Of a stretch of 64,000 nt of DNA, positions 34,459-59,779 are shown piece by piece; position 1 is the first letter of the stretch, and each line of letters begins with the position of its first letter. Made by a program: the position numbers and the translations under genes. The DNA is from a virus: the IMG/VR virus record IMGVR_UViG_3300020477_000014, positions 1 to 64,000 of that record; one strand, 5' to 3'. The notes below the pieces were generated by a model. The model worked only from the letters and a program-made list of their open reading frames with translations. It made no database searches and was not told where the DNA came from.

Positions 34459-35316
34459 ATGTCTCAAGTTATATTTTTGTCCGATATGTTTGTGGAACAA
34501 TACGCCGGCGGAGCAGAGCTTACTAGTGAATCTATCATTAAGGCTGCTCCCGAAGGCATTATTATTAAGAAAATTCTTACTTCTACTTTGACGCAGAGGA
34601 TGATCGATCATCATAAAGAGTATTTGTGGGTAATTTGCAATTTTGCTGGCTTATCGGATGAGTTTAAAATATATTTTTGTAAGAATAAGATATCTTATAC
34701 TATTATTGAATATGATTATAAATTTTGTAAATATCGCTCCATGGAGAAACATGAGTATGCAGAGGGAAAAGCATGCGATTGTAATGAACTCCCGTTTGGT
34801 AAAATTAATAAAATATTTTATGGATATGCAAAACAGATTTGGTTTATGAGTGCCAAACAACAAAATATTTTTCACGATAAAGTACAGACTATTAAAGAAG
34901 AAAATACCAGCGTGTTGTCTTCTATTTTTGCCGATGGCGATTTGAGGTTTATTGACAACATTCGTCATAATGAAAAGAATTCTAAATATATTATTTTGCA
35001 ATCTCCTTCTTGGATCAAGGGAACAGGAGAGTGTGTAGAATATGCTAAATCTCATAATTTGGATTTTGATTTGGTCCATAATCTACCGTATCCCGAGTTG
35101 TTGATAAAACTCTCTCAATCCCGCGGACTTATATTTAGACCTTTAGGGGGAGACACATGCCCTCGAATTGTGATTGAGGCAAAGTTGCTGGGTTGCGAAT
35201 TGGTTTTAAATGGAAACGTGCAACACAAAGACGAAAAATGGTTCAATGCCAGCTATGAAGAGATGGTTGCCTATCTTAAAGGTCGTGCTAGTGTTTTTTG
35301 GAAGCATTATGAATAA
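34459..35316 (+). CDS. Short GT-B-like glycosyltransferase
   Basis: GGAELT; WIKGT; DTCPRIVIEAKLLGC. Confidence 0.7.
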   Translation: MSQVIFLSDMFVEQYAGGAELTSESIIKAAPEGIIIKKILTSTLTQRMIDHHKEYLWVICNFAGLSDEFKIYFCKNKISYTIIEYDYKFCKYRSMEKHEYAEGKACDCNELPFGKINKIFYGYAKQIWFMSAKQQNIFHDKVQTIKEENTSVLSSIFADGDLRFIDNIRHNEKNSKYIILQSPSWIKGTGECVEYAKSHNLDFDLVHNLPYPELLIKLSQSRGLIFRPLGGDTCPRIVIEAKLLGCELVLNGNVQHKDEKWFNASYEEMVAYLKGRASVFWKHYE

Positions 35317-35998
35317 GAAAACTATAATTTTAATGGGGAACGGTCCATCCCTGAAGGACGTAGACTTTTCGTTGTTAGATGGTTACGATACTTTTGGTCT
35401 CAATTCGGCATATCGCGCATATGAAAGAATGGACTGGTGGCCTACTTATCACGGCTGTTTTGATTATAGAGTTACAGATAATCATAGGAGCAAATTCGAG
35501 GACTTGATAACCAACAGTCCTATTAAGAAATGTTTCTATATTCGTGATTTTGGAACAAATGATGGGTTTCAATATGTAAACTTGCAACAATATGGTACAA
35601 CGCAAAAGTTCAATAATTCGCTAGCTGATTTTGATTCATTTCATGATAATGGAAATTCAGGCGCCAATGCTAGTTCAGCGGCTGTTTGCATGGGTTACAA
35701 TAGGATCATACTTTTGGGCGTAGATTGCAATTATGTAGAATTCGTCGACGGCTCCCAACGAGATGGTCCGGGGCTGAAAATGGAGAAAACGCCCGAACAT
35801 AATCCTAATTATTGGTTTGATGATTACCAGCAAAAGGGCGATGAATACAATATTCCTCGAGGGATGGATTTTCATATGCCTACCTGGAATGCGTTTGCTT
35901 ACAATGCTGCTCATAATAATATAGAAGTCATTAATTGCAGCCCCATTACCACCTTAAGGTGCTTTAAGAGAATGAACATAGAGGAAGCGCTAAGGTGA
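35309..35998 (+). CDS. CstII/Maf (DUF115)-like CMP-sugar-acid transferase
   Basis: IILMGNGPSL, FGLNSAY, MGYNRIILLGVDCNY, NYWFDDY. Confidence 0.7.
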   Translation: MNKKTIILMGNGPSLKDVDFSLLDGYDTFGLNSAYRAYERMDWWPTYHGCFDYRVTDNHRSKFEDLITNSPIKKCFYIRDFGTNDGFQYVNLQQYGTTQKFNNSLADFDSFHDNGNSGANASSAAVCMGYNRIILLGVDCNYVEFVDGSQRDGPGLKMEKTPEHNPNYWFDDYQQKGDEYNIPRGMDFHMPTWNAFAYNAAHNNIEVINCSPITTLRCFKRMNIEEALR

Positions 35999-38502: not shown

Positions 38503-38714
38503 AGAAATTCAACCGCGGCGACTTGGTGAAATGGTATGAGGTATACAATGATGTCTACATTACCAAAGATTATGGAACCGGAATCGTGATGGAGAGAATG
38601 GAACAAAATTACGGCTTCATCGATGGACCGGTTACTACCTACAGGGTATATAGATTAAAATATAGTGATATTGTTTTGTATGGGTCGGACTTAATAGAGG
38701 AAATAAATGAATAA
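38484..38714 (+). CDS. SH3/KOW-like protein inside the glycan cluster
   Basis: FNRGDLVKW...GTGIVMER...YRVY. Confidence 0.6.
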   Translation: MGKRTIKKFNRGDLVKWYEVYNDVYITKDYGTGIVMERMEQNYGFIDGPVTTYRVYRLKYSDIVLYGSDLIEEINE

Positions 38715-40371
38715 AAGATTATGCGTGTTGCAGGTCACTCCTACCGAACCTAATAGGGATCATATCGAATTATTTCACAATAAAAAAGATTGTGATTTTT
38801 ATTTTGTAACACATGATAGCCAACATGCTGATGCATTAAAATTTTGTCCCAACACTACGTGGACAGATACAAGAAATATATTAGCTGAAATGGTTCCTAA
38901 AAAATATGATTATTATGCTTTTGTGGATTATGATTATCGTTTTCATCCCCAAGGCGATCTTGGGGTACTTGAGCAGATATTGTCTGATTTAGAACATTTC
39001 AATCCAGCAGTTTTGACTTGTTATCCGGGTTCTGGGCTTATAACTCCCTTTGCTTCCGATATGGATTATAAAAACAAACATACCCACTCTGTAATACCTT
39101 TTACGCATTGTGGAATGAAGGTGGTCCACCATAGCCTTATGAATTGGTTTTTCCCAATGGTTACGAAATTTGGTGGTGGAGTGGAAGCATGTCATCTTTT
39201 TAACATAATGGAGCTTCCTTTTTTGCAAAATATTGTTTGCACTCATCAAATTGTATATGATAATGGAGTTACTGACATGAATGCGCCACACAATCGCGAT
39301 GGTGCACAATCTAAATTGAACATGGACAAGATGTGGTCATGGTTGTATCCTTATTTTAACAAAAGAAAAACCCTAAGAGATAAAGAAGTAAAACTCAGGT
39401 GGGGCGACAGTATCCCAACACGTATCGAGGAATACACTTCATATACTAATTCACTAACAATTAAAGAGACGTACGTCGGCTTATTGACTGGAAAAGTGAT
39501 TCCCAGTCCGGCAGAAAAAGAGGTAGATTATTACAGTTTAAAATATAAAGATAAAATTAAGAAGTTTTTCGATATAAATCATGAACATTTTGCTCCCAAA
39601 TTTGGAAATCTAAAATCTAGAAATGATACAATTGTTATTGTAGGAAATGGACCTTCTTTAAAAGAGGAATATTTCGAGATTTTACGACGCGATGATATTG
39701 ATACTTTCGGATTGAACGTTGCATATCGTTTTTTTGAGAAGATGAATTGGTATCCTAAGTTTTATGGATGTTTTGATTACGCTGCCACGAACACCCACAG
39801 ATCCAGTATTGCCTCTTTTATACGAGATAAGGATTGTCCTATAGAAAAGTTTTTCTTATTGGAAAGACCTAGTATCGAGGCAAGACTAAGCAACACTAAG
39901 TTGTATTTCGATGAGGACGTCCGCGGCGATCGTAAATATGTAGAAAGACCCCATAATCAAGACGGAATCGGATGGCCCACGTGGGGCACCAGGAATAATA
40001 AGATATCTTGCACGGGCGCAAATGCAATTCGCACCGCAATGGAATTAGGATACAAAAAGATTATTTTAATTGGTCATGATGCCAGCTACACTCCTTCGAA
40101 AAAAATCGAGGGACATTCTCAAGTATCGTCGGACAGATATGAGGTGACGGAAAAATCTCAAAATCCTAATTATTTTTGGCAAGATTATTACGAGAAGGGA
40201 GATATTTATAATAAGCCGGGGGATGCATTACCTGCATGGAAAAATATGGCTGATTGTGTAAGCCAAACTTATCCACATGTGGATGTAGTTAATTGCTCGA
40301 AGAACTCTAGAGTAACTTTTTTTCGGTTTGGTGAGTTTTTTAAAGAGATTGGGGTAAAAAATGAAGACTAA
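38707..40371 (+). CDS. Fusion: GT-A-like domain plus CstII/Maf-like transferase domain
   Basis: N-half YYAFVDYD (DxD); C-half IVIVGNGPSL, FGLNVAY, LGYKKIILIGHDASY, NYFWQDYY. Confidence 0.65.
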   Translation: MNKRLCVLQVTPTEPNRDHIELFHNKKDCDFYFVTHDSQHADALKFCPNTTWTDTRNILAEMVPKKYDYYAFVDYDYRFHPQGDLGVLEQILSDLEHFNPAVLTCYPGSGLITPFASDMDYKNKHTHSVIPFTHCGMKVVHHSLMNWFFPMVTKFGGGVEACHLFNIMELPFLQNIVCTHQIVYDNGVTDMNAPHNRDGAQSKLNMDKMWSWLYPYFNKRKTLRDKEVKLRWGDSIPTRIEEYTSYTNSLTIKETYVGLLTGKVIPSPAEKEVDYYSLKYKDKIKKFFDINHEHFAPKFGNLKSRNDTIVIVGNGPSLKEEYFEILRRDDIDTFGLNVAYRFFEKMNWYPKFYGCFDYAATNTHRSSIASFIRDKDCPIEKFFLLERPSIEARLSNTKLYFDEDVRGDRKYVERPHNQDGIGWPTWGTRNNKISCTGANAIRTAMELGYKKIILIGHDASYTPSKKIEGHSQVSSDRYEVTEKSQNPNYFWQDYYEKGDIYNKPGDALPAWKNMADCVSQTYPHVDVVNCSKNSRVTFFRFGEFFKEIGVKNED

Positions 40372-41501: not shown

Positions 41502-42179
41502 ATGCATAGGGATATAGATATAAACGTTTTGATTGCTGTTAGAGGCGGTTCTAAGCGCATTCCTGGAAAGAATACGAGACCTTTCGGGGGAGCCTCGATG
41601 CTTGAATTGAAAATTCAACAAGCTCTTCGATTAAAAGAAGTATCTGCGGTGGTGGTGACGTCAGAAGATGACTCCATGTTGCAGATAGCAGAAGATCTGG
41701 GAGCAGTTGCTATGAAGAGGGATTCTTATTATGCTAGCGATACGGTTCCAATGGGAGAAGTATATGTTCATCTTGCGTCATCTCTTAGTTGTAAGGATGT
41801 TTTGTGGACGCCGGTCACAAGTCCATTGGTGACCGATAAAACCATACAAGAGTGTATAACTTTTTATAAAACCAGGCCAGAGTTTGATTCTGTAGTAACC
41901 ACCAATCTGGTCAAGGAATATATGTGGTTGGGCGATAAAGCCATCAACTATGATCCACTGAATCATCCCAGATCCCAGGATTTGCCGGATGTTTATGCTT
42001 TGAATTTCGCAGCCAACATTCTTTCCCGCGAGATGATGATCAAAAACAGGAACATTATAGGAGATAAATTTTATCCTTATATGATAGACGATGTTGAATC
42101 TGTGGACGTGGATACTGAATTTGATTTTGTGATAGCAGAGTTTTTATATAATAACAGAGGAAAAGATTGTGACATATAA
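41502..42179 (+). CDS. Acylneuraminate/KDO-type cytidylyltransferase (NeuA/KdsB family)
   Basis: IAVRGGSKRIPGKN, VTSED, TSPL, RSQDLP, VDVDTEFDF. Confidence 0.85.
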   Translation: MHRDIDINVLIAVRGGSKRIPGKNTRPFGGASMLELKIQQALRLKEVSAVVVTSEDDSMLQIAEDLGAVAMKRDSYYASDTVPMGEVYVHLASSLSCKDVLWTPVTSPLVTDKTIQECITFYKTRPEFDSVVTTNLVKEYMWLGDKAINYDPLNHPRSQDLPDVYALNFAANILSREMMIKNRNIIGDKFYPYMIDDVESVDVDTEFDFVIAEFLYNNRGKDCDI

Positions 42180-42843: not shown

Positions 42844-43778
42844 GAAATATCAAGATCTTTATTGTTACATATAAGAGGGGAGATGTCCTAAATAATACTT
42901 TGCAAAAGTTATTCAAAGAAACCGATTTCTCCTTAATACCGAATACCGAAGTTAATATTATTAATAATCATTCAGATTTTTGGATTGATGATGAATTTCG
43001 GGACCAAGTGAATGTTATACACAATTCTACGCGCCCCGATTGGGATGTTGGTAATCTCGCACGTAATTGGAACGAAGCACTTTTGCACGGCTTTAAAGAT
43101 TTAAAAAACCCAGACTCTAAGGTGGTGGTAACGATGCAGAACGACATTGTTTTGCACCCCAATTGGGCCACCAATTTGCTTAAAATGCATAAAAAATATA
43201 ATTTCATAACTGGTTGCGCAGGTGATAATATTATTAGTTATACGGCGGAGGCAGTGAAGAAGATCGGATTATGGGACGAAAGGTTTTGTTCCATATCTCA
43301 CAAAGAAGCCGATTATTATATTAGAGCGCTTATTTATAACAAAGAATATTCCATTATAAATGATCAGTTTCATAAGCGTTATCTAAATGCAGACGCATGG
43401 CTTCCTTTGGATACTGGTGATTACTTAGGCAATGAAAAAGAATGGATGAAGATAAAAGCCACCAACTTGTCTACAGAAGCAATGAACCATAGCACTCAGA
43501 TATTTTACTGGAAATGGAAAAACACATGGAAGACTCAACCTTCTTATAATGGATGGTTCGTTAATTGGTCGTCGGATTTTATAACCGATCCGCCATCTCC
43601 CCCGACCGTTCCGAATTTCATAAAATATTATTATTTTGAAAAAGATCTTGACAATTTGCAAAAAAAGAATTATATTGGTTGGAGAAGTGGCGATCTTTGG
43701 TTGAGATCTACGGGGAACCTGGACATTGATGAACTTCCACCTCCCAGAGAATCAACTACAGGAGAAATTTCGAAATGA
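42840..43778 (+). CDS. GT-A (GT2-like) glycosyltransferase
   Basis: IFIVTYKR, LARNWN, MQNDIV, IGLWDERF, EADY. Confidence 0.7.
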   Translation: MRNIKIFIVTYKRGDVLNNTLQKLFKETDFSLIPNTEVNIINNHSDFWIDDEFRDQVNVIHNSTRPDWDVGNLARNWNEALLHGFKDLKNPDSKVVVTMQNDIVLHPNWATNLLKMHKKYNFITGCAGDNIISYTAEAVKKIGLWDERFCSISHKEADYYIRALIYNKEYSIINDQFHKRYLNADAWLPLDTGDYLGNEKEWMKIKATNLSTEAMNHSTQIFYWKWKNTWKTQPSYNGWFVNWSSDFITDPPSPPTVPNFIKYYYFEKDLDNLQKKNYIGWRSGDLWLRSTGNLDIDELPPPRESTTGEISK

Positions 43779-44470
43779 TAACTACTAAAAATTTACAAAT
43801 AATAGACACTGCGCAAACTCTTTATGATGCTTTTAACGATTTTATTTTGAGCGACGATACCAAAGTGTTCGGAAAATTACTCGCAAGAGCCATTTTGCTC
43901 GATCGAGTAAAAGATGTTCCTGGTGATATAATAGAGTGTGGTGTTTTTAAAGGGACCGGTGTTGTTTCTTTTCTAAAAATAAAAAAATATTTATGCCCCA
44001 ATTCTCATAAAAAAGTTATTGGTTTTGATTTTTTTGATACTGACGGATTGTTAAAAAGCCTATCAAACCAAGACCAAGAGGCTATGAGTGCATTATTCAA
44101 AGATAGAGGATTCGAACATGAGCAGGGATTTGTTTCTTATTTAAAGCAGTCAATTGAATCCTTTGGGTTTCAAGAGCACGAATTTGAACTTGTACAAGGA
44201 GATATTTCAAAAACTATAAAAGAATATATATCCGATAAGCCTGGATTGAAAATTTCTCTTTTATATATTGATTTAGATATTGAAAAGCCAACTTATGATG
44301 TTTTGTGCGCCACTTGGGATAGAATGTCGAAGGGGGGCATGATAGTGTTTGATGAATATGCATATCATTGCTGGTCGGAGTCGATTGGTGTGGATAGGTT
44401 TTTCAAAGATAAGAATGTAGTAGTGAGGTCTCTAAATTTCATGGGACCCACAGCATATGTAATAAAATAA
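43775..44470 (+). CDS. TylF/MycF/NovP-like O-methyltransferase
   Basis: VPGDIIECGVFKG, GFDFF, LLYIDLDI, GGMIVFDEY. Confidence 0.85.
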   Translation: MITTKNLQIIDTAQTLYDAFNDFILSDDTKVFGKLLARAILLDRVKDVPGDIIECGVFKGTGVVSFLKIKKYLCPNSHKKVIGFDFFDTDGLLKSLSNQDQEAMSALFKDRGFEHEQGFVSYLKQSIESFGFQEHEFELVQGDISKTIKEYISDKPGLKISLLYIDLDIEKPTYDVLCATWDRMSKGGMIVFDEYAYHCWSESIGVDRFFKDKNVVVRSLNFMGPTAYVIK

Positions 44471-44483
44471 AAAGAGAACAAAC

Positions 44484-45215
44484 ATGAATATATTGATACC
44501 AATGGCTGGCGAAGGCAGTCGATTTAAAAAAGAAGGCTTTAAAAAACCAAAACCACTAATAGACGTTAACGGAAAACCTATGATTAAGTGGGTTGTGGAT
44601 AATGTCGGAATTGACGGAAAATATATTTTTATCGTACAAAAGGCACATACAATAAAGTACCCATATTTAGTTGATGAGCTTACAACTATGGCAAAGGACG
44701 TAGAGGTGTTGACGGTAGATGGATTAACAGAAGGCGCCGCATGTACAGCATTGATAGCCAAACACTTGATAGACAATGACGAGCCATTACTAATTTGCAA
44801 TTCAGATCAGTGGGTGGATTGGGTCCCAGAACATTTTTTAAAATTTATAAAGAGAAAAGATTGTGATGGGGCATTATTAACTTTTTTCTCTGATAGTCCA
44901 AAGCATTCTTATTCTCGATACAATTATAATACCAGAGTGGTAACAGAAGTTGCCGAAAAACAAGTTATAAGCAATTTTGCCACTGTGGGAATATATTATT
45001 GGAGAAAGGGTAGCGAATTCGTGGAATGTGTTAATAAAATGATAGACAAGAATCTAAGAGTTAATAATGAATTTTATTTATGCCCAGCCTATAATGAGTT
45101 GATTTTCCACAAAGACGGGAAGGTGGAATTGTATCCTATTTGTGAGATGAGGGGAATGGGTACTCCTATGGAATTAGAAAGGTTTTTACTCTTATTAGAG
45201 AAAGAAGGCGTTTAA
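44484..45215 (+). CDS. Sugar-1-phosphate nucleotidyltransferase-like protein
   Basis: LIPMAGEGSRF..EG..KPKPLIDV; TEGAACT, CNSDQ, EVAEK, NNEFY, GTPMEL. Confidence 0.85.
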   Translation: MNILIPMAGEGSRFKKEGFKKPKPLIDVNGKPMIKWVVDNVGIDGKYIFIVQKAHTIKYPYLVDELTTMAKDVEVLTVDGLTEGAACTALIAKHLIDNDEPLLICNSDQWVDWVPEHFLKFIKRKDCDGALLTFFSDSPKHSYSRYNYNTRVVTEVAEKQVISNFATVGIYYWRKGSEFVECVNKMIDKNLRVNNEFYLCPAYNELIFHKDGKVELYPICEMRGMGTPMELERFLLLLEKEGV

Positions 45216-46399
45216 TGAAGTTTTTTCGTCAAAGTGTAGAAAAAGAGAAATACATCATAGTGGAGTATTTTTTAAAAAGCAAGACCACATTGAGAGATGC
45301 TGCATGGTCTTTGGCAATAGGTCAAAGTGTAGGAAACCCCAATGTCAGAAATCATTGGGAAACCGATGAGCTTTTTGAGAACCATTCTTGTTTGATTATG
45401 GGTGATGAAGAGAAGTTAAAACAAATAAGCGAAGGTAAAGTTAAAATAGCCTTTCCAATAGCAAATACAGACTTTAAGACAGATGGAGTGTCTCATTTGC
45501 TTTGTCAATTTATGGGCGGACAAATGGATATAGATATTGTTCAAAAATGCCACATGTTGAATGTAGTACTACCTCAGCATGTTGAAGATAAATATTTTTT
45601 AGGACCAAAATACGGCATTGAAGGTATCAGAGATTTTACTAATAGTCACGATAAGCCTCTTTTTGGAGGGATTGTTAAGCCCAAGATTGGCGTTACAAGT
45701 AGCGTGTTGCTTGAAATGGTACGAGAGATGGTAGAGGGGGGCATCAATTTCATCAAAGAAGATGAGATCATGTCAAACCCTGCTTGTTGCCCAATAGAAG
45801 AAAGAGTACCTTTAATTATGGATTATCTCAAAGGCAAGGATGTGATTTATGCTGTTTGTATTAATTGTGATCCGCTGCATGTTATTGATAGAGTTAAAAG
45901 AGTTCATGAATTAGGAGCCAACGCTGTCCATATCAATTTTTGGAGCGGACTTGGAGTTTATAAATCAATTAGAGAATTGGATTTGCCAATGTTTATTCAC
46001 TTTCAAAAAAGTGGCGACAAAGTATTAACAAACAAGAATCATGATTATCATATTTCTTGGGACGTTGTGTGTGATCTGGCAGGTCTTATGGGTGTGGATT
46101 TTATACACGCTGGAATGTGGGGTGGCTACATGTCAGATAATGAACAGGAATTAAAGAACACTTTATCTGTTTTGCACAACAGGAGTGTAATGCCGGCTCT
46201 AAGTTGCGGAATGCATGCAGGTCTAATTCAAGCAATAAACAAAAGATTTGGAACAAATTATATGGCTAATGTCGGCGGCGCTATACATGGACACCCTAAC
46301 GGCTCTAAAAGTGGCACCATGGCGATAAGACAGAGTGTAGATGGCGAACATGGACAAGAATATGAAATTGCGATAAAAAAATGGGGGATCGTAAAGTGA
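45215..46399 (+). CDS. RuBisCO-like protein (form IV)
   Basis: GGIVKPKIG, NFIKEDE, DFIHAG, PALSCGMH, NVGGAIHGHP; lacks the HRA motif and the loop-6 Lys. Confidence 0.85.
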   Translation: MKFFRQSVEKEKYIIVEYFLKSKTTLRDAAWSLAIGQSVGNPNVRNHWETDELFENHSCLIMGDEEKLKQISEGKVKIAFPIANTDFKTDGVSHLLCQFMGGQMDIDIVQKCHMLNVVLPQHVEDKYFLGPKYGIEGIRDFTNSHDKPLFGGIVKPKIGVTSSVLLEMVREMVEGGINFIKEDEIMSNPACCPIEERVPLIMDYLKGKDVIYAVCINCDPLHVIDRVKRVHELGANAVHINFWSGLGVYKSIRELDLPMFIHFQKSGDKVLTNKNHDYHISWDVVCDLAGLMGVDFIHAGMWGGYMSDNEQELKNTLSVLHNRSVMPALSCGMHAGLIQAINKRFGTNYMANVGGAIHGHPNGSKSGTMAIRQSVDGEHGQEYEIAIKKWGIVK

Positions 46400-46423
46400 C
46401 TGACATTTTTTGGAGAACCATTA

Positions 46424-46867
46424 GTGAAAATGATTGCACATAGAGGAAATCTCAGAGGGCCGAACCCGGACCAAGAGAATAAACCAGAGTATATAGAGGC
46501 GGCATTGGCGGAACACTACGATGTGGAAGTGGACGTATGGCGATCTGAAAACAAGTGGTATCTAGGTCACGACGAACCACAATATGAGATAGATTCAGAA
46601 TTTCTCGTAAATGAGAGAATATGGTGTCATGCAAAGAATTTACATGCATTTCAAGATTTGTTGGTATTAGATGCGCATTGTTTTTGGCACCAAAAGGATG
46701 ATTATACCTTGACAAGTAGTAATTTTATTTGGGCGTATCCTGGCCAACCATTGTCGCCGATGTCCATTTGTGTAATGCCTGAATTAACAGCTTATACCAC
46801 AACAGATGTCTTAAGGTGTGCCGGGATCTGTTCCGATTGGATAGAGAAATTTGGGGAAATTTTATGA
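46424..46867 (+). CDS. Short GDPD/PLC-like phosphodiesterase-domain protein
   Basis: MIAHRG, ENKP, DVEVDVW, LGHD, HAKN, GICSD. Confidence 0.7.
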   Translation: MKMIAHRGNLRGPNPDQENKPEYIEAALAEHYDVEVDVWRSENKWYLGHDEPQYEIDSEFLVNERIWCHAKNLHAFQDLLVLDAHCFWHQKDDYTLTSSNFIWAYPGQPLSPMSICVMPELTAYTTTDVLRCAGICSDWIEKFGEIL

Positions 46868-47544
46868 TATTGGCTTGGCAGCAAATTCCTTCTCCAATGG
46901 TTTCAGAGATCTTGTGTTGTAATTCTGCTGGCATAGTGTTGGATTTGGAACATGGGTGTTTTAATAATGAGACTCTTTACACTTGTATTCAAATTATTAA
47001 ATCTAAAAATAAAAAATGCATAGTTAGGCTGACAGAAGTTTCCAAAACAATAATTCGCTATTGTTTGGATGCCGGCGCTGATGGATTAATTTTTTCTACA
47101 ATTGAAACAACAGAACAATGTGAAAAAATAATGGAATATAGCTACTATGCTCCCAAGGGCAAGCGAGGCTTGGGGTTGGTCCGCCAAAATCTATGGGGTG
47201 AGAAAAACCTTTTGTCACCAGATCCTATTATTATACCCCAAATCGAAACAAAGGATGCTGTGGATAATTTGGAAAACATCTTAAAATTTAATTTCGATTA
47301 TTATTTAATAGGCCCTTATGATCTGTCTTTAAGTTTAAAAATCCCGGGAAAATTTGACAATCCTCAATTTATATGTTATATTAATAAAGTGAATGAATTG
47401 ATAGAAAGGTCCAGGCTGGCAGTTCATATTCCCAATGACGTTCCTAATCAAATTAGCAAATATAGGGATTATGGAATAAAATGCCTGGGCATGGACACGA
47501 TAGGGCTATTAGAATATATGAAGGAGAACAACAAGCATGCTTAA
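46864..47544 (+). CDS. HpcH/HpaI class II aldolase family
   Basis: LDLEHG, LDAGADG, YAPKGKRGLG, PQIETKDAV, IGPYDLSLSL. Confidence 0.85.
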   Translation: MILAWQQIPSPMVSEILCCNSAGIVLDLEHGCFNNETLYTCIQIIKSKNKKCIVRLTEVSKTIIRYCLDAGADGLIFSTIETTEQCEKIMEYSYYAPKGKRGLGLVRQNLWGEKNLLSPDPIIIPQIETKDAVDNLENILKFNFDYYLIGPYDLSLSLKIPGKFDNPQFICYINKVNELIERSRLAVHIPNDVPNQISKYRDYGIKCLGMDTIGLLEYMKENNKHA

Positions 47545-48514
47545 TTTCGAAAATTTAGGAGAAAGATTTGTTCAAGTAGTTAACGGATCGGATTGGCTAG
47601 AATTACAAGAAAAATTTAACAAATGTGATGACATATACGTGTTGGGTCATGGAGGAAATTTAGCCGTGGCTGATCATGCTGCTGTAGATATTACTCGCTT
47701 ATCTAACGGACAAAAGAATGCTATTTGCCCCAGTAGTGGTGTTGTAGCCACCTCTTTTATCAATGACACCAATTTTGAGCAGTGGATGGTAAATTGGTTA
47801 TCTTGTCGTACCAATACGAGAACTGAAGCACAAATGAAGAAATCGTTAGTACTGGGAATATCGTCTTCTGGCGCCTCTATCGATGTTTTAAAAGCACTAC
47901 AGTGGGCGAATGACAACGGGATGGAAATAGGGATGATTAGCTCCAAGGATCTTACTTATGATATTTCTAATTTGACTAAAGTTATATTGGGCGCCGAATA
48001 TTACCACACCGCAGAGGTTCTAACACTTCTTTTAACCTACCAACTAACTCATGGATCAGGGAAAGAGTGCCCCCCTATAGGACAAAATACTCCTGATGCA
48101 TTGCGCGCACTAAACTGGAAAGGGGGTCACATCCGGGAACACAGCTATCCGGATGAAAAAATTAATTTAGGAATCGATTTTGATAAAGTGATTCATGGTT
48201 GTTCGCGAGGATATTATGATGGCACTATTTATGATCCCCCTATTCATGGAGCCGCCGAGGCACTTGAAAAATTATCTCAAAGTTATACTTTAATTATTTA
48301 TACCTGTAAAGCCAAGCCAGATCGTGGACTTGTGAATGGAAAAACAGGAACAGCTTTAGTTTGGGAATGGCTAGAAAAAAATAATCTTTCTCAATTTGTA
48401 AGTAAAGTTACAGCAGAAAAGCCACGAGCAGTGTGCTATATTGACGACAAGGCTGTACGATTTATCGATTGGGAATCTTGCATGAAAGAGTTGGAGGAAA
48501 TAGGCATTCTATGA
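47537..48514 (+). CDS. Fusion: SIS (GmhA-like) isomerase plus HAD phosphatase
   Basis: LGHGGNLAVADH, GISSSG; then GIDFDKVI, IIYTC, KP, YIDD. Confidence 0.75.
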   Translation: MLNFENLGERFVQVVNGSDWLELQEKFNKCDDIYVLGHGGNLAVADHAAVDITRLSNGQKNAICPSSGVVATSFINDTNFEQWMVNWLSCRTNTRTEAQMKKSLVLGISSSGASIDVLKALQWANDNGMEIGMISSKDLTYDISNLTKVILGAEYYHTAEVLTLLLTYQLTHGSGKECPPIGQNTPDALRALNWKGGHIREHSYPDEKINLGIDFDKVIHGCSRGYYDGTIYDPPIHGAAEALEKLSQSYTLIIYTCKAKPDRGLVNGKTGTALVWEWLEKNNLSQFVSKVTAEKPRAVCYIDDKAVRFIDWESCMKELEEIGIL

Positions 48515-49323
48515 TCTTGATAACAGGACATAAAGGCTATATCGGAAGTCATCTCTATAAGGCTTTAAAATCATTTGACATGGAAGTGTATGGGATTGAT
48601 TTAAAAGACGGTCACGATATCGCTTATTGTTTGCCTGATCGAGATTTCGATTATGTATTCCATCTAGCAGCACTACCACAAGTCGAATATTGCAACAAGC
48701 ACCCTAGTTATGCACTTAAGCAAAATGTGGGTGCAACTTCGATACTTCTCGAGTGGGCTTATGGACACAATGTCAAGAAGGTCATTTTTTCATCTTCAGC
48801 AGCAGTGTATGGCGATGGAGGTGGTCCTAAATCTCCTTATGGTTTACATAAGTTGATGGCAGAAATGGAGTGTAAACTATATTCAGATTTTTATAATATA
48901 GATACGGTTTGTTTGCGATATTTTAATGTATATTCAGAAGATCAACCGTACGGCGGCTCTTATTCTACGGTTATTGCAGCTTGGATGGAGATGATGAGGA
49001 ATGGTCATCCTTTGCGTTTGGATGGCACAGGCAAACAAACGAGAGACTTTGTTCATGTAGAAGATATAGTGGCTGCTAATATATTTTGCATGAAGAGTAA
49101 ATTAAAATTTAATGGAGAGTGTTATGATGTGGGCTCTGGTCAGTCGACTGCGCTTAACACTATAAAATATTATATCGATCATCGATATTCTAATGTGAGT
49201 TGGTTATGGACCCCTGAAAGAGAGGGAGACATCTTTAATTCGGTTGCTGACATATCTAAGTTGGCAGAAATAGGATGGACACCACAAATTGACATAAAGA
49301 CTGGCTTATCTAGATGTTTTTAG
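48511..49323 (+). CDS. NAD-dependent epimerase/dehydratase
   Basis: ITGHKGYIG, VFHLAA, SSSAAVYG, YGLHK, LRYFNVY, RDFVHV. Confidence 0.9.
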   Translation: MILITGHKGYIGSHLYKALKSFDMEVYGIDLKDGHDIAYCLPDRDFDYVFHLAALPQVEYCNKHPSYALKQNVGATSILLEWAYGHNVKKVIFSSSAAVYGDGGGPKSPYGLHKLMAEMECKLYSDFYNIDTVCLRYFNVYSEDQPYGGSYSTVIAAWMEMMRNGHPLRLDGTGKQTRDFVHVEDIVAANIFCMKSKLKFNGECYDVGSGQSTALNTIKYYIDHRYSNVSWLWTPEREGDIFNSVADISKLAEIGWTPQIDIKTGLSRCF

Positions 49324-53326: not shown

Positions 53327-56300
53327 ATGGCGGAATCTAAATTTTTAAAATGGCAAGATCAGAACGGCGACGGCTTGATAGATGTCTGTAAAGTAGATGT
53401 TCCTTCTAAAGAACTTCCAGATTGCCCAGAATGCAAGCCGGATCCGGCTTACGTAGCTCCGGATTGGAAAGAGCGCAACCAAAATCAGCCTTGGTATGAT
53501 GCGAAGCGCTTAGAATATCATATTACGGTGGTGTGCGAAGAGACGTCTATTACTCCTTTTGAAAATGCCAGCGACGAAGAGGCAGCGGATTATGTCAAGT
53601 CGCTATTTAGAAAGTATCAAGAAGAAGCAATTGAAAATTTATTGTTACATTTCAATAAGTTAGATTCTGAACTGATTCGCAATATGGTTCGAGAACACTT
53701 GAATTATCATCGGCATTACTTGGACGCACGTCCAGGATCGAAAGTTCGATTATTATACGGAATAGCTTGCGAGAATTTCATCAATCTTCCGGAAAGAATA
53801 GAAGACGAGGGTGACGAACCAGAAGAAACCGGCCCAACTGTGGTTTTATACCGCGGCGATGATATATTTCCAAAATTAATGAAATTTAGAAAAGCAATGA
53901 ATTTGTATGCGAGGTATTATCGAGTATACCAAGCTTTAAACAGGGGCACTCTTGTTGAAGTAGAGAGTGGTAAAATATTTTCTCCTAAACAATTGCAAGA
54001 ATTCGGAGACAATGGCTTCCATAAAAGTATCATGCGAGATATGATTTATGGTTTGGATGGGTGGCTTAATCAGAAAGGATTAAATTTGCCCGGCTTCGGG
54101 GGCTTGGGTGGGCTTTTTGACGACAAGGTTACCAAAATTGAATTCACTTTTAGTAAAACTTATATTCTTAAAAAAATCCGAGCATGGTCGGTCAAGTGTG
54201 GTGATGTCCCGGCGGTATTCTCCCGGAAGCAATTGAGATTGTTGAAATCTCAAAGAGGCTGGAATTCCCCCCGAGCATGTGCTTATTTTGCCAAACTCGA
54301 TGAAATAGAACAAGATCTTACAGCTAGAGAGCCGGCACCATGGCTGGAGTTCATTGAGAAATATACATATCCGGCAGTAGTGGGTAATGAAAATTATGGG
54401 ATCGATGGAACATCTTGTATCGGCGATATGTTACGCCAAGAAGCTAAAGCTTTAGGGCAAGATATTTTAGATGATGTCTTCAGTCTCGGGGACGCAATCG
54501 CCTATGCTTTTAATAAAAGTATGTGTGAACCAGATTTGCACGACATTGAAGTGATGAGAGAGAAGTTGGGGCTTGTGCCGGAACCCGGTGAACCAAAGGG
54601 GCTTAAAGCTATTAATGCTCATAATGTTTTTGGTGTGGCAATGGAGCAGGCTTTCAAGCAAATGGAGGCGCGAGACACTGTTTTTGTTGAATTTTGTCAA
54701 CTTATTGCTAGCGGATTTGGAACATCAAGTGCCGCGGCAGGTCAGGCGGAAGGCGGAGGCGGAAGTGTTGACGATGCCACCGGCGTGAGTGATGTGAAGG
54801 AAGTAGCTAGTTCGGCTATTTCCGGAAATATGACTAATGTGTTGTGGAGCGCCTTGGATCGTATTAAGATTTGTGGGCTAAAGAGTATAGCTTTAGATGT
54901 GTTGCGTTGTTTGTTAAATGGCGTGAGCCTCGAGCAAGCGTTGGGGAGGATTGTCAAGAGCGCCCTCAAGGCACTCTCGATAGACAATTTTGGTAAATTG
55001 TTTATTGGTTTGCCTCCGGAGAAACAACAAGAGCTTGATGCGCTCGTAAGAAAGAAGATAGAAGAAGGAAATATAGCCAAGGACGGCGCACCATTATCGA
55101 GGGTGTCGATCGAAATTAACAGGCCGTGGGATAATCAAGCCACACAAATGAATCCAGATGCCACAGTGGGAGATATGGTGTCTCCTGGCGACGTTAGTGC
55201 GCTAAATAATGAAAAATCACAACCTACGGATCGCACTCTAGCTCAGCGGTTCGACCCGCAGGCTAATACTGAAGGGCTGGATCCGAACATTGTTTTAGAA
55301 GCATATGTTATTGCTCTCATTGAAGTGTATAGTGATGACTTGTTGTCATTAGTTGATAAATTAAATGATTTTCCAGGATATCCGCTGCTTGCACGAACAA
55401 TTGCCAATTGGGACTGCCCTGTGCCTCCTATGTTTGATCCTAATTTTTTAGACTTTATTAGGAGCGTGGATACTCCGTTTTGTACTGGCGTTGATGATAT
55501 TGTGCTTCCGAAGCTAATTAATCCTTTTGCGTGGATTCCCAAGTATAATGATTTATATGCGGCTGGGTTTGAAATGCTCAGAGTGGCAGTACAAAGAATT
55601 ATTGTGGCTATTATCATTAAATTGATAGTTAAGATTTGTGAGACTTTAGGAAAACTTTTGTGCAAAGGTCTGGGAGCCATTGGACAAATAGGTAAGGGAA
55701 ATATTTTAGATATTTTGAAAGAAGGCTTGTGTGGGCCAGGCATGTCTCAGCAACAAGTAGAAGATACACTAGCCGAAATGTTTGCTAAATTTGGTGTCGG
55801 CGGTGCTGCATTTGCCAACCAAGAAGCTACACTTTCTTATTTTGCAGACCTTTCCCAAGCAGTAACGCGCGCAGAATTATTGAGCGCCTTCCAGGGGGAG
55901 ATGTCTCCCCAAATGGCGATGATTGCCGATAATTTAATTGAATTTGAATATGGAGAATTTCGAGAGGGGCTGCCAACACCCGAGTCGATTGCTACCATGT
56001 TTGCAGACGCAGGCACTTTATTCCCCGCAGACGTCCGTAACGCGATGCAAAACTTCTTAAATGATCTTCCTCCGGATGATTTTGCTCCGGCGAATCCTAC
56101 ATTATGTGCCACTCCCGAACAGCTTGAGCAATTTTGTCAAATTCGTGAAGAAATGTTGATGGGAAGAGCGACGTCCAACCAGTCTCGAGAAATGTGCGAA
56201 GAATTACAAGAAGATTTGCTAGACGAACTCGAAGCTATTGCAGACATCCTTCAAGAACCCAGAGGGCCCTTGGCGAACGCACTACCCCCACTTATGACCG

Positions 56301-59300
56301 GTCCGGGCGCCAGTGGCGATGACTGTGTTCCCTCTTTGCTCCCATTTGAACCAGATGCCAACAAGAAAGCGGCAGCAACAGTTCAGAAAGGGAATTTAAG
56401 CCAATTGGAATTAGCATTTACTAAAGATATGCTAGGTAATGGTCCCGGAGAAAAGAACTGGGGAATGTTGAACATGGTATTGTCAGATACGATGGGGCAG
56501 CCATTAACTGCTCATTGGCGCAAAGCTAACAATCGCACAGCTTATGTTGATTTTATTACAGATAGCGAAAACGATCCGGACGCCGGTGACGACAAGAAGT
56601 GGCTGTTTTTTACAGATCCGGCGCCCACACCTAGACAATATGGGGCTCATCCTGAAAAAGTAGCCGACTGGCTTCAAAGTCAGTTATTGGAGTTGAACAC
56701 CTCATTTAATTTAAACAACTCTTGGTCACCCGCATATTTAGGATATCCTAAGACTTTCGAAGAATTAGGAATAGATAGAGGCAACACCAAAGATCCGGAT
56801 ACGACCGGTTTGGGCGACCTGGGCTATGGCGTAGACTTTAGGGTTGATGGAGAGAACCGAACTGTACGCTTTACTGTTAATGGTCGGAAGGATCTTCCAG
56901 ATTGCACATACCGATTTCGCGATAACAATAAGGGGAGAAAAGAACATCTGGGTACCGAGTATTTGTACGGATTCGACGTCGAGTTATATGTGGCAGACTT
57001 ACACAAGAACAACGGAGAAGTATCCAACGTTGGTGATGCTTTTAAGCGCGGGAATTCACGACGTACTCCAGGAGATGTGTCGCGCATAAAGGTCATGGAA
57101 TACTTTAATTTCGGAGAAGCAGACGACTCACATCTTACTGATATGATGACAGAGGACCAGAAAAAAGAATATGAAAAGAGCAAGGAAAAGACCCCTCAAA
57201 TAATTACCTCCCCGCTTTATGAATTTAGATGTAGCGATGATACGTTTTCTACTATCAACGAAAGAGACTCCATTACTTTGAGGTCCTACACTGACTTTAA
57301 TGAATGTTTTTCATCTTTAAAACCATATTCCCCAGGAGTATATCTTTTATATGATATCATTAAGCGTAATCAGAGTGTCTCCACTTTATCACTTCCAACT
57401 ATCGAATCTCACATTGACAGCGTGATGAATGAGATAAACATTGAGATGGCGTCAGTAATTAGTTCCAATCCCACACCTTTTCAATATGGTGCGAAATATG
57501 ATAATATTGGTACCAAAATGTACGATTATGTTATTGGACCTAACACTTTAGGATATCCCGAAGACACTCTTTATAGCGATGTTGAAATAGACGGAGAGCC
57601 GATCAAGGAAGCAGATGCGGTCATGGGGATTAGTTATGATCAGTATGAAAATGGAAACGAGGCTCGCGTTTTTTATTTGAACCCTGCCACTTATGGCGGA
57701 AAATATACGCGCCCGGCGGCTTACGTAAAACCAGTTAAGCTTGAAGGGTGGATGGGAATGGTTACAGTTATGTTTCCTGACTTTACGCCATGCAAGCCCC
57801 GAACTACTGATATTATAGATTTTCAAGGGATCCAAGAAGAAGTCCAAGAAATATATTATAAAATCCCAGACGACCAGCGGCTTCGATCAGATCCGGATTG
57901 TATAGTAGAAAAGCCATATAATCGTATTTTGCAGCGAGCTAGTAAAGCGGGGCTTTTGGGTCTGATCAAAGCATCTTGCCGGATATATGCCACAACACAT
58001 TTCTTAAAATCATTTGCGGCTTTTGCAACTTTTTCTCCCAAATTCCCACAGAACTATAGCGATATTTATGCGGCTTATATTGTAGAGGACATGGAAAAAT
58101 CTTTTAAAGATGCTCAAGGGGCTGGATGGGAATTTTTTAATCCTTTTAAAGATGGCGAGTTTTGGTATGGTTTTTTAGAACAATCAGTTCAGGCTTATAA
58201 TTTATTATTAGATTCTGGTGAAATTACTGATCCTCCCAAGCAAGTATTAGAAGCCATGTTTGCACTGAATGATATTCAGGCTGCTTTTGAATATCCGTTT
58301 CGTAGGGATTTACGAAAAGCAAAGAAATTACGAGAAGTGAGACTGATTAAGACTCTCAAAAATTACAGAATGGAGAAAAATCTCGAAGCCGTTCAGGCTT
58401 CCGAAGAAGCAGCAAAAGTAATTTTAAAGGAATTTGTGAAGATGGAACTTAATATAATGGGTGAGAAATTTCTTTCTAATTTGGAAGAAAGTTTAGCTCC
58501 CGTTTCAGGTCCATATGCCACCGGTACCGTTGGGAAATTTAGACCCACATACACAGAGATCGATTACTATTTTTTGCAAAACCATGTATATGGCGCCGGC
58601 AATCTGGATTTAGATAAAGAAATCAAAGAAACAGTTGATACTCACCATTTAGAGGAATCTGGAAGCGATCATTATACTGCTGGCGGCGCGTTGGCTAAGC
58701 CGGATGGTACCGAGTATTCTGGTTTTTATCACGTACACACAACAGCAGATAATGAAGATGTTTACATGGCTGGCGCGTACCATAGTGAAGACACTCATGA
58801 TGTTTTGACTATCCTAGCAAATGTAATAAAAGTCCCCATCGGTGACGTCCAAAATTTTGGAGACTCTATTGATTTAAATAGCAAGTTTGTATTGGAAAAA
58901 TATACTTCTATAAATGGAATCAAATATTCCCCAAGCGATGCCTATTCGGAGATTATGAGTGCTGCCAATCCACCAGAAAAAAACCTTTCAGATATTTATC
59001 CGGGCACCCTTCAAGAGGTCACGAATCTTGAAACCGGCGCTGTCACAGGAATCACTGGCGAACTAGGCGTACGCCACGGATTAAGATTTTCTACTATAAT
59101 AAATGGAGTTGTGTATGAACTGACAACGGTTGAAGTCGATGCTTTAGATGTCAAGATAGCCAATTACTCCCCACTGACAGGCGATAGCAAGTTGTTGTTA
59201 TGTCTCCTTAATCATTTGCGAGATGACTTTATTTTTAAAATGTGTGTTCAATATATCTTTCCAATGAAAAAGATCTTATCAACGTTGGCCATTTACACTG

Positions 59301-59779
59301 ATTTGGGGTTTTTAAATTCTATTGGCGAAGTTACCGTAGAAGATGGAATGACACAGCCTAATTTTGAGAATCCCAAACCAAGCTTTGACGAAAAGCCTGG
59401 AATGAAAGTGAAATTTCACAATTGGGAACAAACACCACCAGATTTTACTCCAAGCTACGAATCCACTGCTGGCTGGTCAAGCTATAGCGACAGAAATCAG
59501 CCGTTTACTCCATTTGTGTTAGATTGGGATGATTGGGATAGAGAGATTTTACGAAACTCTAAAAGCAAAATTAAGCGTCTTTTTCGTGTGTATTATACTT
59601 CACGAAAATTTGAACCCTTTGATGACGATAAGGGCGCCGGCACCGTAAAATCTGCCACTCGCAATTTACGAGAGGCTTTTCGAAGACCATCGTCAGCACG
59701 GATGCCTTGGTTTTGGCGTCGTCGATTGCGTCCTAATGTTTTTGATCGGAATGGAAAATTGTGCGATAAAAATGAATAA
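53327..59779 (+). CDS. Very large putative virion protein, 2150 aa
   Basis: Uninterrupted ORF in the structural block; N-terminal DQNGDGLID Ca-binding-like loop. Confidence 0.7.
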   Translation: MAESKFLKWQDQNGDGLIDVCKVDVPSKELPDCPECKPDPAYVAPDWKERNQNQPWYDAKRLEYHITVVCEETSITPFENASDEEAADYVKSLFRKYQEEAIENLLLHFNKLDSELIRNMVREHLNYHRHYLDARPGSKVRLLYGIACENFINLPERIEDEGDEPEETGPTVVLYRGDDIFPKLMKFRKAMNLYARYYRVYQALNRGTLVEVESGKIFSPKQLQEFGDNGFHKSIMRDMIYGLDGWLNQKGLNLPGFGGLGGLFDDKVTKIEFTFSKTYILKKIRAWSVKCGDVPAVFSRKQLRLLKSQRGWNSPRACAYFAKLDEIEQDLTAREPAPWLEFIEKYTYPAVVGNENYGIDGTSCIGDMLRQEAKALGQDILDDVFSLGDAIAYAFNKSMCEPDLHDIEVMREKLGLVPEPGEPKGLKAINAHNVFGVAMEQAFKQMEARDTVFVEFCQLIASGFGTSSAAAGQAEGGGGSVDDATGVSDVKEVASSAISGNMTNVLWSALDRIKICGLKSIALDVLRCLLNGVSLEQALGRIVKSALKALSIDNFGKLFIGLPPEKQQELDALVRKKIEEGNIAKDGAPLSRVSIEINRPWDNQATQMNPDATVGDMVSPGDVSALNNEKSQPTDRTLAQRFDPQANTEGLDPNIVLEAYVIALIEVYSDDLLSLVDKLNDFPGYPLLARTIANWDCPVPPMFDPNFLDFIRSVDTPFCTGVDDIVLPKLINPFAWIPKYNDLYAAGFEMLRVAVQRIIVAIIIKLIVKICETLGKLLCKGLGAIGQIGKGNILDILKEGLCGPGMSQQQVEDTLAEMFAKFGVGGAAFANQEATLSYFADLSQAVTRAELLSAFQGEMSPQMAMIADNLIEFEYGEFREGLPTPESIATMFADAGTLFPADVRNAMQNFLNDLPPDDFAPANPTLCATPEQLEQFCQIREEMLMGRATSNQSREMCEELQEDLLDELEAIADILQEPRGPLANALPPLMTGPGASGDDCVPSLLPFEPDANKKAAATVQKGNLSQLELAFTKDMLGNGPGEKNWGMLNMVLSDTMGQPLTAHWRKANNRTAYVDFITDSENDPDAGDDKKWLFFTDPAPTPRQYGAHPEKVADWLQSQLLELNTSFNLNNSWSPAYLGYPKTFEELGIDRGNTKDPDTTGLGDLGYGVDFRVDGENRTVRFTVNGRKDLPDCTYRFRDNNKGRKEHLGTEYLYGFDVELYVADLHKNNGEVSNVGDAFKRGNSRRTPGDVSRIKVMEYFNFGEADDSHLTDMMTEDQKKEYEKSKEKTPQIITSPLYEFRCSDDTFSTINERDSITLRSYTDFNECFSSLKPYSPGVYLLYDIIKRNQSVSTLSLPTIESHIDSVMNEINIEMASVISSNPTPFQYGAKYDNIGTKMYDYVIGPNTLGYPEDTLYSDVEIDGEPIKEADAVMGISYDQYENGNEARVFYLNPATYGGKYTRPAAYVKPVKLEGWMGMVTVMFPDFTPCKPRTTDIIDFQGIQEEVQEIYYKIPDDQRLRSDPDCIVEKPYNRILQRASKAGLLGLIKASCRIYATTHFLKSFAAFATFSPKFPQNYSDIYAAYIVEDMEKSFKDAQGAGWEFFNPFKDGEFWYGFLEQSVQAYNLLLDSGEITDPPKQVLEAMFALNDIQAAFEYPFRRDLRKAKKLREVRLIKTLKNYRMEKNLEAVQASEEAAKVILKEFVKMELNIMGEKFLSNLEESLAPVSGPYATGTVGKFRPTYTEIDYYFLQNHVYGAGNLDLDKEIKETVDTHHLEESGSDHYTAGGALAKPDGTEYSGFYHVHTTADNEDVYMAGAYHSEDTHDVLTILANVIKVPIGDVQNFGDSIDLNSKFVLEKYTSINGIKYSPSDAYSEIMSAANPPEKNLSDIYPGTLQEVTNLETGAVTGITGELGVRHGLRFSTIINGVVYELTTVEVDALDVKIANYSPLTGDSKLLLCLLNHLRDDFIFKMCVQYIFPMKKILSTLAIYTDLGFLNSIGEVTVEDGMTQPNFENPKPSFDEKPGMKVKFHNWEQTPPDFTPSYESTAGWSSYSDRNQPFTPFVLDWDDWDREILRNSKSKIKRLFRVYYTSRKFEPFDDDKGAGTVKSATRNLREAFRRPSSARMPWFWRRRLRPNVFDRNGKLCDKNE

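Follow-up and report, generated by a model that had tools for sequence, protein, structure and literature searches.

We analyzed a 64,000-nucleotide stretch of viral DNA (positions 1 to 64,000 of the IMG/VR record IMGVR_UViG_3300020477_000014; hereafter, the window) and focused on a gene at 45215..46399 on the + strand, which encodes a RuBisCO-like protein (RLP) of 394 amino acids (aa). The source virus record has 189,712 bp and was rated complete by CheckV, all the long open reading frames (ORFs) of the window are on the + strand, and the presence of PhoH, a baseplate wedge protein, and a tape-measure-like protein identifies the source as a large tailed phage, of marine origin. Immediately upstream, a 243-aa sugar-phosphate nucleotidyltransferase of the PF00483 type is encoded at 44484..45215 (+), and its stop codon overlaps the start codon of the RLP gene in a TAATG sequence. 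Downstream, an ORF at 46424..46867 (+; start at GTG 46424 or ATG 46430) encodes a 147-aa protein, described below as a miniature GDPD-like phosphodiesterase (mini-GDPD). A preliminary description of this DNA had noted the TAATG coupling, which is indeed found in the window sequence, and had proposed that the RLP serves an anabolic role in glycan building, with a rearranged or branched sugar phosphate as its presumed product.

The RLP matched the Pfam RuBisCO_large family far beyond chance (E value, 1.4e-34) and scored 120 bits with PF00016, for which the cut-off is 30, which places it in the RuBisCO large-subunit superfamily. Its AlphaFold model (pLDDT 93) predicts an intact two-domain RuBisCO fold, and Foldseek aligned this model to solved RuBisCOs and RLPs with TM scores of 0.86 to 0.88 at 19 to 26% identity. 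Each motif listed in the preliminary description was found in the translation, namely, KPKIG (K155 and K157), KEDE (K181, D183, and E184), HFQKSG (Q264 and K265), DFIHAG (H298), SCG (S330 and G332), and VGGA (G354 and G355), and Tyr305 occupies the position of the loop-6 Lys. The protein fell far under the cut-offs of all curated NCBIfam models, with 148 bits for form I (cut-off, 438), 86 bits for form II (489), 161 bits for form III (497), 159 and 126 bits for the MtnW models PRK09549 and TIGR03332 (409 and 514, respectively), and 122 bits for OiaX (700).

We then mapped the active-site residues of 76 members of the clade that contains the RLP, through form I sequences and with an alignment by MAFFT (RuBisCO numbering is used hereafter unless the phage protein is specified). 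K175, K177, K201, D203, E204, S379, G381, G403, and G404 were invariant (76/76, at identities down to 37%), the first five corresponding to K155, K157, K181, D183, and E184 of the phage protein. This conservation indicates that the clade keeps the Lys-carbamate/Mg2+ enolization machinery and the proximal phosphate (P1) site. The replacements E60G, T65N, H294Q, and K334Y were also invariant, and N123 was replaced by G, or by a neighboring Q or H (46 sequences have Q and 30 have H at the residue beside N123). In the phage protein, the positions of H294, K334, E60, T65, and N123 are held by Q264, Y305, G36, N41, and G102 (or Q103), and those of R295 and H298 by K265 and D268, so that the activation and metal site of carboxylating RuBisCOs is present together with substitutions at all seven of these positions, which in those enzymes serve CO2 addition, hydration, cleavage, and the binding of ribulose-1,5-bisphosphate. 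Since the residues on which CO2 addition and C-C cleavage depend (H294, K334, E60, and N123) are replaced, the RLP is predicted not to be a carboxylase; the low scores with the form I to III models agree with this, as does the preliminary description, which had argued against CO2 fixation. We consider it reasonably probable that the RLP is a catalytically competent, noncarboxylating member of the superfamily. The distal phosphate (P2) site is variable in the clade, with K or S at R295, D or A at H298, and H or Q at H327. These positions co-vary as two subtypes, K-D-H and S-A-Q, independently of the composition of the gene cassettes described below, whether judged by the cupin or by the 242-aa family. 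The distal substituent thus probably differs among clade members, and one product for all of them is unlikely.

The best structural matches of the RLP were form III RuBisCOs (Thermococcus kodakarensis 3a12 and Pyrococcus horikoshii 2cwx; TM 0.87 to 0.88). Like them, it retains K175, K177, K201, D203, and E204, of which K177 is lost in many RLPs; unlike them, it carries H294Q, K334Y, E60G, T65N, a replaced N123, and a degraded P2 site. By BLAST, the best matches among alphaproteobacterial references were OiaX-type RLPs, at 24 to 28% identity. OiaX, a 3-oxo-isoapionate-4-phosphate decarboxylase, and related sugar-acid RLPs act on phosphorylated keto compounds; OiaX differs from the phage RLP in being catabolic, in having no nucleotidyltransferase partner, and in forming a separate clade with 100% support, and the phage RLP lies outside that clade and under the OiaX equivalog cut-off.

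The relationships of the RLP were examined in a quick, midpoint-rooted maximum-likelihood tree, with references that were taken from 301 alphaproteobacterial genomes and labeled by NCBIfam (form I, form II, and OiaX-like sequences and two further groups of RLPs); the tree was built without MtnW, Photo, DeepYkr, and form III references and without the sequences of Jaffe, Castelle, Dupont, and Banfield (bioRxiv 10.1101/386292; PMC6389311). In this tree, the RLP and 35 relatives formed one clade with a long stem and an SH-aLRT support of 99. Apart from a few from metagenome-assembled genomes (MAGs), these relatives were found on viral contigs, and a sequence from a Beckwithbacteria MAG (L084) nests within the clade. 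From the phage genomes that carry it and the placement of L084, the clade matches the "IV-like" phage/Beckwithbacteria group and has therefore already been published (Jaffe et al. 2018/2019, bioRxiv 10.1101/386292/PMC6389311). The accessible text of that paper describes divergent RLPs encoded in the genomes of large myoviruses of many environments, grouping with Beckwithbacteria and with key residues unlike those of other form IV proteins. It leaves their function open while discussing carbon metabolism and lateral transfer, and the nucleotidyltransferase linkage, the fusions, the mini-GDPD, and the O-antigen context presented below are not described in that text (bioRxiv 10.1101/386292; PMC6389311). 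The clade is abundant, with 2591 RLP homologs returned by one search from marine and freshwater metagenomes. A tblastn search with the RLP against 50,697 deposited phage genomes gave no match and a DNA search with the PhoH region gave weak Vibrio phage matches only, so no cultured relative was identified.

The nucleotidyltransferase scored 32 bits with PF00483 (cut-off, 21) and carries an N-terminal nucleoside triphosphate-binding loop (PMAGEGSRF, of the G-x-G-x-R type), with G9, G11, R13, and K23 invariant in 41 homologs. Its nearest solved relative is 4evw (E value, 4.7e-12), a nucleoside diphosphate (NDP)-sugar pyrophosphorylase of unassigned specificity from V. cholerae; the NCBIfam specificity equivalogs (RmlA, GlmU, ManC, HddC, MurU, and others) gave at most 42 bits against cut-offs of 250 to 658, and an Atlas look-up returned generic names only. 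Among the closest 120 homologs, we found in-frame, linker-free fusions between the nucleotidyltransferase and the RLP in 8 protein clusters, with the nucleotidyltransferase as the N-terminal domain. A complex prediction for the two separate proteins scored 0.01, which is evidence neither way.

The 147-aa protein had no match in Pfam and NCBIfam. Its profile matched the GDPD 7e0v (E value, 1.6e-4), and H4, R5, E16, N17, E33, D35, and H47, which are invariant in 47 mini-GDPD sequences, align to the GDPD catalytic motifs. With Foldseek alone, the AlphaFold model of the protein (pLDDT 97) remained unplaced (best E value, 0.038); by VIA-align, the top 22 matches were all GDPD/PLD proteins (Z 7.4 to 10.2, with 134 to 141 of 145 residues aligned over the whole GDPD barrel), and later scores fell to generic TIM barrels. 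Like the GDPDs of T. maritima (1o1z) and P. furiosus (7e0v), the protein has the His/Arg/Glu/Asn/Glu/Asp/His catalytic set and the barrel core; it has ∼145 residues versus 220 to 250 and lacks both the full-length (β/α)8 barrel and the Pfam match. The profile, the catalytic residues, and the modeled structure thus mark it as a stripped-down GDPD-type phosphodiesterase, and the label GDPD-like of the preliminary description is borne out.

We then looked into the neighborhood of the RLP in 80 viral and 9 "genome" loci (L001 to L089), several of the latter being MAG contigs that are themselves phage-like; the counts were obtained by clustering (n = 89) or by tblastn (80 viral loci). The nucleotidyltransferase was found beside the RLP in 85 of the 89 loci (78/80 viral loci by tblastn) and the mini-GDPD in 69; other recurrent neighbors were a 107-aa metal cupin with an HxH...E motif (56 loci), a DUF7796 protein (37 loci), a CmcI-like methyltransferase (31 loci), an FkbM methyltransferase (30 loci), and an epimerase/dehydratase (23 loci). 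The cassette has a stereotyped order, (DUF7796)-nucleotidyltransferase-(cupin)-RLP-(methyltransferase)-GDPD, and the other neighbors include glycosyltransferases, WavE, UDP-GlcNAc 2-epimerase, and a ferredoxin; no kinase was found among the neighbors in the 89 loci. The pairing of RLP and nucleotidyltransferase is kept even in L088 and L089, the RLPs of which are only 37 to 38% identical to that of the window. The first of these (PCAT01000110.1, labeled as a Balneola sp. MAG) carries gp32, RNaseH, SegE, PhoH, and RNR and recurs on 50- to 77-kb Tara contigs (L092 to L094), a gene content that identifies it as the contig of a T4-like phage that was binned into a bacterial MAG; its 359-aa RLP (38% identity) is followed by the nucleotidyltransferase and two GT25 genes. 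The view that the RLP is functionally tied to the nucleotidyltransferase is supported by their conserved synteny, their translational coupling, and the natural fusions.

The same survey separated the conserved module from genes that merely lie close to it in this phage. Downstream of the mini-GDPD gene are, all on the + strand, an HpcH/HpaI aldolase (46816-47544; by Pfam), a protein that joins a SIS (GmhA-like) half to a HAD-like C-terminal half (47537-48514), and an NAD epimerase/dehydratase (48469-49323; by Pfam/NCBIfam). The preliminary description had placed the aldolase and the SIS-HAD protein with the RLP; Pfam confirmed the HpcH family of the former, and for the latter the SIS half received a weak match (gmhA, 1.4e-6) and the HAD half is suggested by motifs read by eye. 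By tblastn, the aldolase was found in 0/80 viral loci, the SIS-HAD gene in 1/80, and the epimerase in 16/80. All three genes are window specific and outside the conserved module, and the aldolase and SIS-HAD genes therefore cannot inform the chemistry of the RLP; the part of the described neighborhood that is conserved is the nucleotidyltransferase and the mini-GDPD. The gene directly upstream of the nucleotidyltransferase encodes a TylF-type S-adenosylmethionine (SAM) methyltransferase (43775..44470, +; Pfam TylF, 2.1e-11). Methyltransferases of several families flank most cassettes, so this gene would be an accessory rather than a fixed member. The cassette cupin, the profile of which gave generic cupin matches only (quercetinase, a 113-aa mannose-6-P isomerase, and KdgF), has no counterpart in this phage genome, nor in the nearest relatives L001, L002, and L004.

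Two further families adjoin the cassette, the DUF7796 protein (∼249 aa, with invariant G, D, Y, and R.D; e.g., L001:6529-7269) in 37 loci and an unrelated, unnamed 242-aa family in 18 loci. Their profiles matched no solved relative, and both are candidates for a dedicated transferase of the cassette product. In nine cupin-less loci, a 115-aa 2x[4Fe-4S] ferredoxin (Fer4 and DUF3470) is encoded two genes upstream of the nucleotidyltransferase (e.g., L018:6470-6814). A trio of RLP, nucleotidyltransferase, and cupin was also seen in the complete 2.28-Mb chromosome OY970364.1 of a member of the Verrucomicrobiae (L091), where it adjoins a fatty-acid desaturase and has a DDE transposase nearby but no obvious glycan cluster around it.

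An RLP 48 to 62% identical to that of the window was found in 4 of 401 Pelagibacterales (SAR11) genomes. The three SAR11 genomes inspected all contain a GDPD-nucleotidyltransferase-RLP triad, on large, low-GC chromosomal contigs, one of 1.37 Mb, and the cupin-less triad of the phage has this same composition. In one of these genomes, the triad lies among a GT4 initiating transferase, two Wzy_C proteins, a GT1 protein, and epimerases and adjoins the housekeeping genes pntAB; by its gene content, this cluster is an O-antigen cluster. Such a location indicates that the cassette truly belongs to the glycan synthesis of cells, rather than being a peculiarity of phages alone.

In the phage, the cassette lies within a glycan island of ∼17 kb (31.9 to 49.3 kb of the window). 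The island contains two GT4-like glycosyltransferases, two MptE/Maf-like proteins, GDP-mannose 4,6-dehydratase (Gmd), a cupin, a short-chain dehydrogenase/reductase (SDR), a PseF-like cytidylyltransferase, FkbM and TylF methyltransferases, and a GT2 protein, followed by the RLP cassette, the aldolase, the SIS protein, and the epimerase. A CMP-nonulosonate or keto-acid branch within this island is suggested by the two MptE/Maf-like proteins and the PseF-like cytidylyltransferase (35210-35998, 38707-40371, and 41502-42179; 84 bits for the cytidylyltransferase, under its equivalog cut-off); the window showed no synthase of the NeuB/PseI type.

We propose that the RLP and the PF00483 nucleotidyltransferase, usually with the mini-GDPD, make an unusual nucleotide-activated sugar or polyol-phosphate unit for the glycosyltransferases of the island, and we regard this proposal as somewhat better than an even bet. 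As the RLP is tied to the nucleotidyltransferase and located in glycan-building clusters, an anabolic, glycan-building role appears to be the best reading and is well supported by context. The suggestion of such a role in the preliminary description is thus sustained by synteny, fusions, and the SAR11 O-antigen loci, and loses the argument that it drew from the aldolase and SIS-HAD genes. In the route that we envisage, the RLP would enolize a keto-sugar monophosphate and then isomerize or tautomerize it, and the phosphorylated product would be the substrate of the nucleotidyltransferase. The 189.7-kb genome contains no GHMP kinase, PfkB kinase, or IF-2B-type isomerase that we could find; with no recognizable sugar kinase in the phage, the phosphomonoester would probably come from the host pool or be freed from a phosphodiester by the mini-GDPD. 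The flanking SAM methyltransferases would probably decorate the activated unit, which the island glycosyltransferases would then use.

Several points weigh against this proposal. The PF00483 match is modest, and the closest structure, 4evw, has no assigned specificity. The P2 site differs between the K-D-H and S-A-Q subtypes, and the cupin of most relatives is missing from this phage, so that it is either dispensable or the cassette makes a different product here. No exporter or polymerase is recognizable in the phage island, so that either a host glycan or a virion protein may be the final acceptor, and the role given to the mini-GDPD is a conjecture.

The RLP could instead be an auxiliary metabolic gene product for sulfur or methionine salvage, acting as a 2,3-diketo-5-methylthiopentyl-1-phosphate (DK-MTP-1-P) enolase or a 5-methylthioribulose-1-P isomerase, with its position in a glycan island being coincidental. 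Its best solved sequence match is the DK-MTP-1-P enolase MtnW/YkrW of Geobacillus kaustophilus (PDB 2oej/2oek/2oem; E value, 1.9e-34), the MtnW model PRK09549 is its second-best NCBIfam model, and the two proteins share the fold (TM 0.86), the metal site of carbamylated Lys, Asp, and Glu, and a noncarboxylating nature, the enolase itself working by enolization. However, identity is ∼26%, both MtnW scores are far below their cut-offs (159 versus 409 bits and 126 versus 514 bits), and the catalytic Lys98 of the enolase, at the position of RuBisCO N123, is not kept, HMMER aligning Gln103 of the phage protein to Lys98 and MAFFT placing Gly102 at N123. A long, well-supported branch parts the clade from the other sampled RLP groups, no IF-2B (MtnA-type) gene is present in the genome, and no salvage neighbor (mtnA, mtnB/K, mtnX, or mtnD) was found in the 89 loci. 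MtnW works in catabolism or salvage, versus a biosynthetic context for the phage RLP, and a salvage function would leave the linkage and fusion to the nucleotidyltransferase unexplained; we find this explanation hardly credible, in line with the anabolic reading of the preliminary description. We attach equally little belief to a role of the cassette in nucleotide or pentose metabolism, through the adenosine monophosphate/ribose-1,5-bisphosphate route of form III RuBisCO. Form III proteins are among the top NCBIfam and Foldseek matches and phages do remodel nucleotide pools, but the score of 161 bits is far from the form III cut-off of 497, the loss of H294, K334, E60, and N123 excludes carboxylation of ribulose-1,5-bisphosphate, the genome has no ribose-1,5-bisphosphate isomerase (IF-2B), and the SAR11 context is an O-antigen cluster.

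The fusions and the tight coupling would also fit a structural partnership, in which the RLP is a noncatalytic scaffold or regulatory partner of the nucleotidyltransferase. However, invariance in 76/76 sequences extends over the entire metal/carbamate site, K175 and K177, and the phosphate loops, at identities down to 37%, which is the pattern expected of selection on catalysis and makes a scaffold very improbable. Another possibility is that the RLP acts after activation and enolizes an NDP-linked keto-sugar, in an epimerization, keto-isomerization, or deoxygenation parallel to the reactions of cupin and SDR deoxysugar enzymes. The N-terminal position of the nucleotidyltransferase in the fusions would agree with this order of events, although domain order does not fix reaction order, and in 23 loci the cassette has flanking genes for 4,6-dehydratases/epimerases, enzymes that generate NDP-4-keto sugars. 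The cupins of such pathways, RmlC and FdtA, act on NDP-keto-sugars. In contrast, all members of the RuBisCO superfamily known to us use small phosphate esters and none a nucleotide sugar, and the P1 glycine loops kept in the RLP fit a simple phosphate monoester. Action after activation therefore seems unlikely to us, while deserving some weight.

Within our proposal of a biosynthetic RLP acting before the nucleotidyltransferase, a more specific version, which draws on analogy with the Geobacillus enolase, can be formulated. The RLP would be a sugar-phosphate isomerase that makes a kinase or mutase unnecessary: the mini-GDPD would free the phospho-precursor from a phosphodiester, and a ketose 1-phosphate would be enolized at the phosphate-bearing carbon, much as the Geobacillus protein acts on DK-MTP-1-P, giving a glycosyl-1-phosphate or a rearranged keto-sugar phosphate for the fused nucleotidyltransferase. 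We offer this version as speculative and rather doubtful. A heptose route, from sedoheptulose bisphosphate to NDP-heptose, was prompted by the SIS-HAD and heptose-epimerase-like genes. We rejected it as a general explanation because these genes are not conserved with the RLP and because the distal phosphate site is degraded.

To our knowledge, all characterized RLPs work in salvage or catabolism. If our proposal is true, it provides a biosynthetic function for the RuBisCO fold and probably defines a new activated sugar; in the kinase-free isomerase version, that fold would gain its first anabolic function, in glycan building, and the function would be widespread in marine phages and SAR11 O-antigens. 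SAR11 is the most abundant marine bacterium, and with the clade present both there and in large phages, the product may influence how phages and hosts recognize each other in the ocean. For enzymologists, the natural fusions offer a ready two-step construct for assays. The preliminary description knew of no account of such a role: phage RLPs as such had been described, and our literature search found no paper linking them to nucleotide-sugar synthesis, nor did the SAR11 O-chain paper mention RuBisCO. New for this window are the position of the aldolase and SIS-HAD genes outside the module, the cupin-less triad as in SAR11, and the two distal-site subtypes.

Elsewhere in the window, a 2150-aa ORF (53327-59779), located just before the baseplate wedge gene, had no PHROG match at an E value of 1e-3. 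A 637-aa protein is encoded at 15232-17145; its N-terminal 390 residues gave no match, and residues 391 to 467 matched nicotinamide-nucleotide adenylyltransferase and cytidyltransferase PHROGs.

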